Of a stretch of 57,199 nucleotides of DNA, positions 29,637 to 31,898 are shown piece after piece. The notes beneath the pieces were generated by a model. The model saw nothing but the letters and a program-made list of their open reading frames with translations. It was not told the DNA's origin and did no database searches. Source of the stretch: Clostridia bacterium (GTDB lineage: Bacteria > Bacillota > Clostridia > UMGS1883); NCBI GenBank assembly GCA_045545055.1, contig JAZQAB010000092.1:1-57199 (forward strand). The letters are read 5' to 3'. Within the stretch, counting starts at the first letter, position 1, and each line of letters opens with the position of its first letter. Both the position numbers and the translations under genes were made by a program.

Positions 29637-29765
29637 AACAGATTGAGGACGGGGCAGTTTTTGTTACATTTTTGGTAGACAAGGGGACGGTTCTGTTGTC
29701 TGTCTACATAAAAAATTTATCATGTTTAAGCACAAAAGCACGGCATCAGCCGTGCTTTTGTGCTT
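29637..29765. repeat. Cassette-boundary repeat R1 (two GGAC-loop hairpins plus terminator)
   Basis: AACAGATTGAGGACGGGGCAGTTTTTGTTACATTTTTGGTAGACAAGGGGACGGTTCTGTTGTCTGTCTAC...AAAAGCACGGC..GCCGTGCTTTTGTGCT. Near-identical copy at 30350. Confidence 0.9.
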
Positions 29766-29770
29766 AAACA

Positions 29771-29980
29771 TCAATTCCAAGATAGAGAAAGCTCTCTTTT
29801 TTTAGCAACACAATCCGATAAATAAAGATTAATCAACGTTTGATAGGGGATACCGGAGGTATCGGCTTGTTGTTTGAAGTAGGATATAATCTCAGAATCA
29901 ATATTTATGGTTATTTGTTTTTTTAGCTTTTTTGCATAGGGATTTTTAATTGCTTTTGAAAAATCATATTCAGCTTTCAT
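29771..29980 (-). CDS. brnA: BrnA/CopG-type antitoxin
   Basis: EYDFSKA.KNPY.KKLKKQITINID...YFK..A...GIPYQTLINLYL. Downstream of brnT. Confidence 0.88.
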   Translation of the reverse strand: MKAEYDFSKAIKNPYAKKLKKQITINIDSEIISYFKQQADTSGIPYQTLINLYLSDCVAKKRELSLSWN

Positions 29981-29991
29981 ACATTAACACC

Positions 29992-30276
29992 TCACTGTTC
30001 ATAATATGACCGTTCTGTTCTGGTTGCTTTTCTTGCGGAGATTAATCGGATTATGGAATCAGATTCTCGATAACAATGACACACAACAAGCAGATTAGCT
30101 TTTTTACTAAAGCCTAAAATGATAAACCTTTCCTCCTAAATTGAATGTTCAGGGTCATCAATTACCAATGCATCTTGGTCGTAGAAGACGGTTTGTGCTT
30201 CTTCAAACGATATTCCATGCTTTGTTTTATTAATTTCGTTTTTGTTATTGTCCCACTCAAATCTTAATGTATCCAT
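29992..30276 (-). pseudogene. brnT: BrnT toxin with in-frame TAG at codon 47 (not in ORF track)
   Basis: MDTLRFEWDNNKNEINKTKHGISFEEAQTVFYD...[14 protein letters not shown]...LLVVCHCYR...[11 protein letters not shown]. The TAG is at 30136-30138. Confidence 0.9.
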
Positions 30277-30282
30277 ATTTAT

Positions 30283-30311
30283 ATTATAATTATAAAATAA
30301 TTATTTGTCAA
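30283..30311 (-). promoter_or_regulatory. Consensus SigA promoter giving a probably leaderless brnT mRNA
   Basis: TTGACA-17-TATAAT, then 6 nt, then ATG. No RBS. Confidence 0.8.
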
Positions 30312-30349
30312 TAGCAAAAGCGAAAAAATGGAGCCAAATGGTGAAAGAA

Positions 30350-30474
30350 AACAGATTGGGACGGGGCAGTTTTTGTTACATTTTTGGTAGACAAGAGGAC
30401 GGTTCTGTTGTCTGTCTGCCTAAAAAATTATTATTTTAACCTAAAAAGCACGGCTACTGCCGTGCTTTTGTGCT
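30350..30474. repeat. Cassette-boundary repeat R2 (direct copy of R1)
   Basis: AACAGATTGGGACGGGGCAGTTTTTGTTACATTTTTGGTAGACAAGAGGACGGTTCTGTTGTCTGTCT...AAAAGCACGGC..GCCGTGCTTTTGTGCT. Confidence 0.9.
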
Positions 30475-30481
30475 ATCTGAA

Positions 30482-30757
30482 TTAAAACAAATCGCTGTGG
30501 CTTCCTGTTCTGTACAAGGTTAGTATCAAAACACTTTCAGTGATTTTATATACTAAAAGCCAATCGGGCTCTATGTGACACTCTCTATAGCCGGAATAAT
30601 TTCCTTTTAAAGCATGATCATTATAAATTTCGGGCAAGGTTTCGCCACTCGCTAAAAGCGTTATTACCTTATGCAATTTTTCAATATTGCAGTTTCTTTT
30701 TAACGCAAGCTTAAAATCTTTTTTAAATTGAGTAGTTCTTTGAATTTGATACTTCAT
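30482..30757 (-). CDS. yafQ: YafQ-family mRNA interferase toxin
   Basis: FKKDFK, DHALKG, RECHIEPDWLLVY, RTGSHSDLF. Confidence 0.93.
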   Translation of the reverse strand: MKYQIQRTTQFKKDFKLALKRNCNIEKLHKVITLLASGETLPEIYNDHALKGNYSGYRECHIEPDWLLVYKITESVLILTLYRTGSHSDLF

Positions 30758-30761
30758 ACTT

Positions 30762-31034
30762 TTAGCTCATTAAATCTGCAAATAAATCGTCAACGCTTGA
30801 AAAACGCTTCGCAGACGGGTCGTTTAACAGATTGTCTCCTTCTTCAAAGGCTAATTTTGTAGCTGAATTTGGAGTGTCTAAACTAAGTTCAAACGGCATT
30901 CCGTTATGAAGAAGTGATTGCCGGAAGAAAACATTAACAGCCGTTGTTAAATCCATTCCTAATGCAGCATAAAGATTTTTTACTTTATCCTTGATTTCTT
31001 TGTCGGTTCTAATGGTGATACTGGTATTTTGCAT
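30762..31034 (-). CDS. dinJ: RelB/DinJ-family antitoxin
   Basis: ITIRTDKEIK...LGMDLTTAVNVFFRQS...GMPFEL..PN..T. Confidence 0.92.
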   Translation of the reverse strand: MQNTSITIRTDKEIKDKVKNLYAALGMDLTTAVNVFFRQSLLHNGMPFELSLDTPNSATKLAFEEGDNLLNDPSAKRFSSVDDLFADLMS

Positions 31035-31081
31035 AAACTTTACCTCCTTTATTAGCCTTAATAGTCTTAGATTATATACAT

Positions 31082-31110
31082 ATTATATGCAATTTTTTGC
31101 CTGTTGTCAA
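31082..31110 (-). promoter_or_regulatory. Consensus SigA promoter of dinJ-yafQ module 1
   Basis: TTGACA-17-TATAAT. Confidence 0.8.
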
Positions 31111-31137
31111 TACAATAGACAAAAAACACGTAAGAAG

Positions 31138-31167
31138 AGTTTGGGGACGTGTCACTTTCTGTTCTAT
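31138..31167. repeat. Cassette-boundary repeat R3
   Basis: AGTTTGGGGACGTGTCACTTTCTGTTCTAT, identical to the copies at 31820 and 31861. Ends 4 nt from the yafQ stop. Confidence 0.9.
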
Positions 31168-31171
31168 ACAA

Positions 31172-31444
31172 TTAAAATAAATCGCTATGCGTTCCGGTAC
31201 GGGTTAAGGTCAGAGTGAGCATATCATTTTCCAATTTATAAATCAGAAGCCAATCAGGCTCAATGTGGCATTCCCTATGACCGGAAAAATCGCCTTTCAG
31301 TGCATGGTCTTTATACTTTTCCGGTAATGGTTCTTCACGGCGTAAGATGCTGAGTACTTCTTCAAACAAGGAGATGTTATACCCACGCTTAATAATTACT
31401 TTAAAATCCTTTTTAAACTTTGCAGAATATCTGACTTTAAGCAT
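31172..31444 (-). CDS. yafQ: YafQ-family toxin (second, divergent copy)
   Basis: FKKDFK, YKDHALKG, RECHIEPDWLLIY, RTGTHSDLF. Confidence 0.93.
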   Translation of the reverse strand: MLKVRYSAKFKKDFKVIIKRGYNISLFEEVLSILRREEPLPEKYKDHALKGDFSGHRECHIEPDWLLIYKLENDMLTLTLTRTGTHSDLF

Positions 31445-31703
31445 GTAAATCCCTCATAAGTTCGTCAATATCATCGTACACCTTGCTCATATTACGATTA
31501 TTGTTCACATCGTCGATTGCTTTCATAGTTTCAGCATTGGGAATATCCACAGCAAGCTCAAAAGGAATTTTGCCTAAACGCACCGCTTGTCTGCAAAAAA
31601 CACCCATAGCGGTTGACATATTTAGCCCCAAGGCATTAAATAAATTTTCAGCCTGTGCCTTTAACTCTTTATCCATGCGAATTGTTACATTAGTTGTTGC
31701 CAT
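31437..31703 (-). CDS. dinJ: RelB/DinJ-family antitoxin (second, divergent copy)
   Basis: VTIRMDKELK.QAE.LF..LGLNMSTA...RQAV...IPFEL...PNAET. Confidence 0.92.
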   Translation of the reverse strand: MATTNVTIRMDKELKAQAENLFNALGLNMSTAMGVFCRQAVRLGKIPFELAVDIPNAETMKAIDDVNNNRNMSKVYDDIDELMRDLHA

Positions 31704-31736
31704 AATAACAAGCTCCTTTCATTATTCAGTGTATTC

Positions 31737-31765
31737 ATTATAGCATATTTTATGTGCAATGTCAA
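31737..31765 (-). promoter_or_regulatory. Consensus SigA promoter of dinJ-yafQ module 2
   Basis: TTGACA-17-TATAAT with TGn extension. Confidence 0.8.
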
Positions 31766-31795
31766 TAAAATGCCGTGCAATATAAACTAAATAAA

Positions 31796-31898
31796 ACAGT
31801 TTGCGAACAGTTTGGGGACAGTTTGGGGACGTGTCACTTTCTGTTCTATGGTAATAGAACAGTTTGGGGACGTGTCACTTTCTGTTCTATGGTAATAG
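31796..31898. repeat. Tandem R3-type repeats (41-bp period) plus partial ACAGTTTG(GGG) units
   Basis: ACAGTTTGGGGACGTGTCACTTTCTGTTCTATGGTAATAG at 31818 and 31859. Confidence 0.9.

Follow-up and report, generated by a model that had tools for sequence, protein, structure and literature searches.

Extragenic repeats resembling TIRtron termini mark the borders of three toxin–antitoxin operons in a Clostridia bacterium

Three type II toxin–antitoxin (TA) operons, all on the minus strand, lie between positions 29637 and 31898 of the window, i.e. the whole 57,199-nt stretch of contig JAZQAB010000092.1 analysed here. This contig (C92) belongs to the source genome G000, that of a Clostridia bacterium whose assembly totals 2.43 Mb and is 93% complete. 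The operons are bordered by short repeats carrying a GGGGAC-like motif, and the initial annotation had seen in this arrangement an integron-like platform for the capture of TA cassettes. The data presented below rather suggest, with more confidence than doubt, that the locus is a dispensable AT-rich TA island (GC content of 0.353 vs 0.403 for the window) where extragenic repeats have accumulated and mark the borders of the operons. These repeats would be of the type associated with TIRYTs, relatives of the REP-associated tyrosine transposases (RAYTs; REP, repetitive extragenic palindrome).

The first operon, brnT-brnA (30276-29771, minus strand), was recognized from its open reading frames (ORFs) and from Pfam profiles. 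The predicted 69-aa antitoxin BrnA (29771-29980, minus strand) matches PF14384 (32.4 bits) and PF12441 (33.3 bits), scores 22 bits against NF047399, under the cut-off of 60, and has its nearest relatives in Clostridia and Oscillospiraceae metagenome-assembled genomes. The match of the toxin gene brnT (29987-30276, minus strand) to PF04365 is split into two segments (profile positions 1-38 and 40-77): a single in-frame TAG at 30136-30138 splits the BrnT domain, so that no intact BrnT ORF stands beside the intact BrnA. Ten related loci were examined, eight of which have a BrnT ORF, and the residue found at the TAG site is E in six, D in one and Q in one. The toxin gene has thus most likely been inactivated and brnT is probably a pseudogene; these sequences suggest a toxin in decay next to an antitoxin that is retained. 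The initial annotation had assigned this operon to the right families and strand and had missed the stop codon.

The two other operons, dinJ-yafQ 1 (30482-31034; yafQ 30482-30757, dinJ 30762-31034) and dinJ-yafQ 2 (31172-31703; yafQ 31172-31444, dinJ 31437-31703), were correctly read from the start, as their families and minus-strand orientation are borne out by the profiles. YafQ-1 and YafQ-2 score 124.8 and 122 bits against PF15738 and 89.9 and 97.1 bits against TIGR00053 (cut-off 87.25), whereas DinJ-1 and DinJ-2 score 59.4 and 84.1 bits against TIGR02384 (RelB/DinJ) and 31.6 and 45.9 bits against PF04221. Adjacent RelB/DinJ and YafQ genes thus pass curated cut-offs in both operons. Each of the three operons has, as had been claimed, its own perfect TTGACA-17-TATAAT promoter on the minus strand (12/12 matching positions in 3/3 cases): at 30283-30311 for brnTA, at 31082-31110 for dinJ-yafQ 1 and, with a TG extension, at 31737-31765 for dinJ-yafQ 2. 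The distance from the -35 box to the next repeat is 38 nt for brnTA, 15-27 nt for operon 1 and 31-52 nt for operon 2. The other end of each operon lies 0-7 nt from a repeat, which agrees with the closeness reported previously.

The repeats take two forms in the array. The ~125-bp direct repeat described around brnTA (29637/30350) was recovered by repeat search as 128 aligned nt with 89.8% identity, shared by 29637-29771 (R125a, plus strand) and 30350-30481 (R125b, plus strand). R125a abuts the brnA stop and consists of a decayed core of terminal inverted repeat (TIR) type at 29637-29668 (GAGGAC for GGGGAC), a hairpin GTAGACA..TGTCTAC at ~29674-29706 and a 23-bp terminator-like hairpin at 29722-29771. 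R125b, whose end is separated from the yafQ-1 stop by 0-7 nt, is built likewise, except that its core has lost one G and the stem of the second hairpin is broken (TGTCTGC). In both copies, the third part comes immediately after the stop codon (of brnA or yafQ-1) and consists of a G+C-rich 23-bp hairpin and then TTTTGTGCT. When stability as single-stranded DNA (ssDNA) was compared with that of shuffled sequences and expressed as z, R125a gave -9.3 and R125b -4.8; the value of -9.3 stems from the 23-bp hairpin and the GTAGACA/TGTCTAC stem, not from the core.

The second form, R40, borders dinJ-yafQ 2. A partial copy at 31126-31167 (plus strand; z -0.3) lies 4 nt from the yafQ-2 stop; its positions 31138-31167 are identical to the R40 tandem units, the left (AGAACAG) arm being absent from the 31138 copy. 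On the other side, the R40 array (31797-31898, plus strand) starts at 31797 with a ACAGTTTG(C/G)G.. stutter, followed by two tandem units, 31818-31857 and 31859-31898, that are 100% identical. The identical 30-mers reported at 31138 and 31820 are thus present, with a further copy at 31861. The folding of the array (z -4.5) is mainly due to a 9-bp hairpin across the unit junction. According to the initial annotation, R125 and R40 were two repeat types with a (G)GGGACG core in the loop of a hairpin. They do have one core in common, ACAGTTTGGGGACG[G/T]G[G/T]CA[G/C]TTT[T/C]TGTTACA (~32 nt). The hairpin part of the claim fares less well: the stems are broken in R125b and absent from the 31138 copy, and the core alone folds no better than shuffles (z -0.3 for 31126-31172, -0.9 and +0.7 for two copies on contig C1).

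Two further observations concern R125a. The 25 nt of its second hairpin (29677-29701) are 100% identical to sequences of two genomes from another family of the order (G031, contigs C61, C150 and C64; G032, contig C42), where they adjoin CPCC, DUF7336 and RHS-type genes; this element occurs far beyond the genus. An Rfam search gave only sub-threshold matches, the best being the Streptococcus small RNA SpF25 over 29647-29765 of R125a (36.5 bits vs 48); there was no match on R125b, and the similarity was judged to be driven by the terminator hairpin.

The core is by no means restricted to the window. A degenerate core pattern has 32 matches in the source genome, two of which (C5:14163 and C127:32034) were judged unrelated, and the family amounts to ~30 copies at ~20 loci. 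Besides the cluster of the window, it occurs as solo cores, as long hairpins that pair a core with an inverted copy (type B) and as 40-nt tandem arrays, and most copies are single, hairpin or tandem forms in ordinary intergenic spacers. The tandem arrays at C5:15638-15784 and C12:52779-52926 run into a type B hairpin and are both located at contig ends; they probably broke the assembly.

A candidate cognate gene is carried by contig C1. The initial annotation had proposed looking for a RAYT/Y1 gene flanked by the same repeats, and such a gene exists: a 276-aa ORF (395-1225) bracketed by cores at C1:321 and C1:1233. The protein has a Y1_Tnp domain (PF01797, 64.7 bits) and a C-terminal helix-turn-helix (HTH) domain (HTH_26, 25.7 bits, residues 230-263). 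Its nearest solved structure is the Escherichia coli TnpA-REP 4er8 (E 8.5e-5), with the HUH and YI..NP motifs aligned, and its score against NF033573, the profile of IS200-type TnpA, is 29.1 bits, below the cut-off of 55. The two clear cores are in direct orientation; a weak inverted remnant at ~1165-1191 scores 24, vs 14 ± 2.7 with a maximum of 26 in shuffles.

The source genome has three Y1 matches, all unlike one another. A second TIRYT-like gene (253 aa, contig C68) is bracketed by repeats of another GGGGAC family, type A, at C68:5469 and 6401. Type A repeats are perfect palindromes of ~43 nt centred on GGGGAC-W-GTCCCC, with 31 centres on 18 contigs. One of them, found by inverted-repeat search at 27826-27868 of the window (GCGACACATTGGGGAC-A-GTCCCCAATGTGTG.., no strand assigned), lies outside the array. 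Beside it, 27990-28290 is an unclassified intergenic repeat DNA that is also found at C25:3200-3600, with short matches on contigs C12, C87, C89, C81 and C24. A partial third TIRYT-like homologue is located at the end of C100. A short Y1_Tnp ORF of 163 aa is found at C29:24152-24643 (locus L011, 1330-1821); no GGGGAC repeats were noticed beside it.

The distribution of cores and genes was compared in 39 genomes of the genus, the source genome included. A 23-nt core, searched with at most one mismatch, was found in 16/39 genomes with up to 26 copies, whereas the reversed pattern used as a control was found in 0/39. Orthologues of the C1-type TIRYT (59-70% identity) are encoded by eight genomes besides the source genome, and all nine genomes harbouring such a gene hold 4-26 cores. 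Among the 30 others, cores are absent from 23 and number 1-3 in six, the exception being G017 (90% complete) with 16. The genomes being kin to one another, this co-occurrence is not a statistic of independent samples.

The genes of other members of the genus are also associated with the repeats. Those of G021, G022, G043 and G050 are flanked by the core family in inverted orientation, and the ORFs of G007 and G016 lie within ~100 nt of a core copy. The architecture combining Y1 and a C-terminal HTH is found in G043 and G050 too, and in a weaker form in G021 and G022. The core associated with the genes of the latter two is the T-type one (GTGTCAC or GTGGCAC), as in the R40 units of the window, and the repeat upstream of these genes has the same stutter-plus-core layout as 31797-31850. 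There is one gene per repeat type here: the C1-type gene for the G-type core, the G021 and G022 genes for the T-type core (R40) and the C68 gene for the type A palindrome. When C1 was compared with the loci of the congeners by tblastx, homology was found only over ~317-1226, i.e. the repeat-bounded unit, in 8/8 cases.

These features recall a known group of elements. RAYT-like genes with long TIRs instead of REPs have been named TIRYTs, and the units that they form TIRtrons; in the passages drawn on here, their repeats share a GGGGWSAS motif and form 'moderately abundant' dispersed families found as singles, dimers and clusters (Di Nocera et al. 2013, PMC3733652). Quentin et al. 2018 (PMC6006769) assign most TIRYTs to subclass 2.1 of TnpA-REP, whose members have an HTH at the C-terminus. 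In the literature searched, TIRYTs are named in these two works alone. The genes found here likewise combine a Y1/HUH domain with a C-terminal HTH and are bracketed by ~30-nt GGGG(A)(C) repeats; the same repeats are dispersed and moderately abundant as single copies, hairpin dimers and clusters, and each repeat type has its own gene. The motif takes the form GGGGACAG in the type A palindrome and in many type B hairpins, a fit to GGGGWSAS at 8/8 positions. As far as sequence comparison goes, the repeats would therefore be the terminal repeats of TIRtrons, with RAYT-like Y1/HUH genes of TnpA-REP subclass 2.1.

Some differences from the described TIRtrons must be mentioned: the host appears to belong to Bacillota, the clear C1 copies are direct, and the repeats form 40-nt tandem arrays and cluster inside a TA island. 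The words 'Firmicutes' and 'Clostridi' are absent from the main text of PMC3733652; the supplementary TIR lists and alignments of this and the other TIRYT paper may include Clostridia. A literature search for REP-associated tyrosine transposases in Firmicutes returned only unrelated microbiome papers. What was found here would be a family of TIRtron repeats, a known and barely studied kind, in a genus that appears to be clostridial.

Other mobile or repetitive elements resemble this system to a lesser degree. Like REP/REPIN-RAYT systems, it consists of scattered extragenic repeats with a cognate HUH gene in one copy per type, and gene and repeats co-occur across species. Unlike them, the solo core forms no hairpin, the protein has an extra HTH and falls below the cut-off of NF047646, no GTAG/GTGG foot of REPs was found among the listed core copies, and the repeat-bounded gene unit stands in unlike contexts in the source genome and its eight congeners, vs the fixed position described for RAYT genes. 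A kinship with CGTC-tagged REPs, considered on the ground that GACG is the complement of CGTC, was dropped, as PMC3733652 describes those REPs as having stems of 8-9 bp, loops of 4-5 nt and no associated transposase. The Y1/HUH domain and the similar ends in the same orientation on one strand (C1 gene, array) recall IS200/IS605 elements; however, the protein has about double the length and carries an HTH, its NF033573 score is below the cut-off, there are no multiple identical gene copies and folding shows no subterminal hairpins at the ends.

The comparison with chromosomal integrons, on which the initial annotation relied, is instructive. As in integrons, short, self-promoted TA modules lie head to tail on one strand, each with a repeat at its 3' side, and no recombinase gene lies inside the array. 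The absence of an integrase from the array, already noted, was confirmed: the source genome has 17 PF00589 tyrosine-recombinase matches, none on C92 and none of integron type. Within this 93% complete genome, the best match to the integron integrase profile TIGR02249 reaches 63.9 bits (cut-off 265). The repeats are not accompanied by attC sites either, as judged from pairs of RYYYAAC ... GTTRRRY cores within 29600-31950. Two attC-type motif matches occur in this region vs 0.4 ± 0.9 in shuffles, and the sole span with both cores (30822-30952) lies inside dinJ-1. The locus also differs from an integron in having no attI/Pc and repeats that are not cassette-specific.

pdif modules are moved by the XerC/D tyrosine recombinases at 28-bp dif-like sites on plasmids of Proteobacteria such as Acinetobacter. 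They have in common with the present locus small modules including TA pairs, short recombination sites and a recombinase encoded elsewhere, and they differ from it in the class of enzyme and in the site.

What stands beside the repeats also speaks against an integron. The initial annotation had suggested listing what lies between the copies; the genes next to them turn out to be ordinary. None of the 26 flanking genes tested in the source genome is a TA gene, and they include recA, cinA, thiI, a class-V aminotransferase gene, alaS, HIT, argJ, a ferritin-domain gene and a gene for a thioredoxin-reductase-like oxidoreductase. At 28 repeat loci of 15 other genomes, the 48 flanking genes include a single TA-like one, which encodes a nucleotidyltransferase of MNT type; 14 of the 48 match no Pfam family. 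Conversely, none of nine other yafQ loci of the genus is abutted by repeats, and repeats are carried by 0/80 metagenome loci with YafQ2 relatives (53-76% identity) and 0/80 genome loci with BrnA relatives. As the repeats form a genus-wide TIRYT family that is not TA-specific, they are landmarks rather than parts of a dedicated integron-type capture system. Without IntI, without attC at the repeats, with repeats scattered over the genome and with other yafQ and brnA loci free of them, the integron analogy is unsupported as membership and weakly supported as mechanism.

On the left of the island, a plus-strand gene (28420-29568; 382 aa, no match in a Pfam search) is followed by a terminator-like hairpin (29575-29619, plus strand) with 15-nt arms that are 100% complementary, which forms the left island border. 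The right border is formed by a GH29 alpha-L-fucosidase gene (31955-32887, plus strand; PF01120, 237.5 bits, positions 33-338 of 345) whose first codons are replaced: homologues found in two metagenomic runs, X2 and X4, extend before 31955 with their own start codons and N-termini, an indication that the gene has acquired a different 5' end at this locus. An ATG at 31888, inside the last R40 unit, is in frame with this gene (31888-31969). The conserved HWG motif of a congener's homologue reads HWR in this fucosidase, and the gene may be decaying.

Related versions of the locus were sought in genomes, in metagenomes and in public runs, the best of which contain only 0.20 of the sampled words; the four runs compared consist of short Logan contigs. 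A DNA search of 28400-33000 in 40 relatives returned no syntenic array, its matches being limited to short repeat segments, homologues of the fucosidase gene and, in other contexts, three dinJ-yafQ homologues. The 382-aa left-flank protein, used to find the orthologous locus in metagenomes, gave 170 pattern matches, 0 of them confirmed. The proposal that orthologous loci would differ by exact repeat-to-repeat units found no example: in the four runs there is no two-cassette piece, no repeat-to-repeat loss of a cassette in the listed joints and no empty site, the uncovered parts being uninformative. Since these pieces are short contigs from mixed samples, the order and linkage of the cassettes cannot be read from them. 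One run (X3) contains all three cassettes with 91-97% identity. In X2, the end of brnA and R125a are 98% identical to the window and the sequence upstream of the brnT -35 box is unlike it.

Taken as a whole, the formation of a TA island loaded with TIRtron-like repeats, which is the reading favoured here, could be viewed as follows. The predicted TIRYT would spread or maintain the repeats in trans, as proposed for RAYTs and REPs. Copies would pile up at the TA island because it offers non-essential, AT-rich spacer DNA. The 125-bp direct repeat would have arisen when brnTA, accompanied by a single copy of the composite, was inserted through recombination with a copy already in place; the R125 footprint is the one expected from a circle with this content. 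The repeats at the cassette borders are thus probably recombination substrates.

Several observations weigh against this reading. Concerning the assignment to TIRtrons, the G-type GGGGACGG and T-type GGGGACGT cores fit GGGGWSAS at 7/8 positions, the C1 protein covers positions 3-146 of 146 of NF047646 (REP_Tyr_transpos, E 1.3e-20) with 73.8 bits for a cut-off of 80, and no TIRYT activity is reported in the passages of PMC3733652 and PMC6006769 drawn on here. Concerning the accumulation itself, five cores in one orientation within 2262 nt, vs ~30 in 2.43 Mb (Poisson P ~1e-10), are tidier than random accumulation, each operon is bracketed by same-orientation cores, and the R125 composite is found only here, as a direct repeat around brnTA, which fits the insertion of a circle at a repeat. 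Cassette 2 of X3 (31165-31783, 93% identity) lies in unlike DNA on both sides: on one side the similarity reaches 2 nt into the 31138 copy, and on the other it stops 14 nt short of the stutter. Its new flanks are another terminator hairpin downstream and another GGGGACG element upstream. Same-orientation GGGGACG repeats also separate small accessory genes elsewhere: Imm40 and CPCC genes in G041, CPCC and DUF7336 genes in G031 and RHS-type pieces in G032. Lastly, a 704-aa SLH-trypsin gene of G021 lies between inverted R40 arrays, the same spot being occupied in G044 by one R40 copy with 94% identical flanks.

These facts could be accommodated if cassettes were shuffled by an HUH enzyme, the TIRYT excising and reinserting in trans, as ssDNA circles, the DNA between same-orientation cores, like the TnpA of IS200/IS605, which works on its left and right ends; TA operons and other small accessory ones would then be genuinely mobile cassettes and the array a functional analogue of an integron. 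The single orientation of the five cores bracketing the operons, the direct repeat around brnTA, the X3 cassette with other flanks broken at the repeat edges and the repeat-separated Imm40, CPCC and RHS-type genes all agree with such a process, as do the location of the C1 TIRYT gene between two same-orientation cores and the confinement of homology to its repeat-bounded unit, in differing contexts, in all eight congeners. Nevertheless, this scenario is unlikely. Most copies are solitary, stand beside conserved housekeeping genes and are partly at positions shared across species, such as after ypeB, before argC and after a trxB-like gene; the other yafQ and brnA loci are free of repeats. Furthermore, the segment shared with X3 stops at the repeat edge and not inside the repeat, the GGGGAC motif itself has decayed in both R125 cores, and the core does not fold.

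The RNase J-argC spacer, considered as a case of repeat-bounded gain and loss, is ambiguous. It measures 304-396 nt and is devoid of repeats in ten genomes (381-396 nt in eight of them), holds repeats in G044, the source genome, G022 and G021, with an extra gene in G021, and contains another gene without any repeat in G017, G007, G043, G016 and G052. These five genomes, with another gene and no repeat before argC, count against cassette shuffling and indicate that the region is variable with or without repeats. After ypeB, inverted cores enclose a gene for a 74-aa XRE-type HTH protein in G043 (L162, C72, 1049-1554) and G016 (L165, C4, 1088-1912), with 80% DNA identity; this unit has an extra YspA/SLOG gene in G016, and a hairpin copy alone is found in G050, the outer flanks not being comparable. 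Another arrangement resembling that of the window was observed in G041 (L024, C43, 554-1528), where Imm40-like and CPCC cysteine-rich genes lie between two same-orientation R40 copies.

It could also be proposed that the repeats act on transcripts, being kept as terminators, insulators or 3'-end stabilisers that prevent three strongly promoted, convergently placed operons from being read through into adjacent genes, as has been suggested for REPs, which are described in part of PMC3733652 as mostly located downstream of coding regions and acting as RNA elements. R125a and R125b indeed place a strong G+C stem, which is the same on both strands, and then TTTTGTGCT right after the brnA and yafQ-1 stops, and several copies of the source genome lie between convergent genes or just past stops. 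Such a role is improbable, however, since the core is unstructured and, within the composite, distinct from the terminator-like hairpin, a simple terminator scan called no R125 sites, neither a stable stem nor a T-run is found in the R40 copies that follow yafQ-2, and many copies lie upstream of genes.

Finally, a tandem duplication that took in one cassette and its repeat, with later divergence or replacement of genes, the repeats being duplicated flanks, would account for the 104 nt that the two tandem dinJ-yafQ operons share at 74% identity and for a 125-bp composite that is doubled locally and found nowhere else as a composite, but it is very unlikely because the YafQ proteins are 56% and the DinJ proteins 40% identical vs 90-100% for the repeats, brnTA is unrelated to dinJ-yafQ and yet has the same 3' composite, and the cores form a genome- and genus-wide family.

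The significance of an island in which TIRtron-like repeats have accumulated depends on what the enzyme does. At its boldest, one could imagine that the TIRYT is a working single-strand recombinase moving any DNA located between same-orientation GGGGAC cores, so that TA, immunity and CPCC operons as well as the TIRYT gene circulate as cassettes and stack into arrays. This is unlikely; if true, the Clostridia of gut and rumen would possess an HUH-enzyme equivalent of the integron. An enzyme acting on the cores would explain how minimal TA and immunity modules, with the -35 box and the stop codon as their limits, can spread among Clostridia when phages, plasmids and integrases play no part. Should the enzyme be inactive on the cores, the locus is a warning that extragenic repeats piling up in dispensable DNA can mimic integron arrays. 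In either case, the genus constitutes a natural data set, with at least three repeat types and their cognate genes, their co-occurrence over 39 genomes, solo, hairpin and tandem forms, and repeats at the borders of TA operons.

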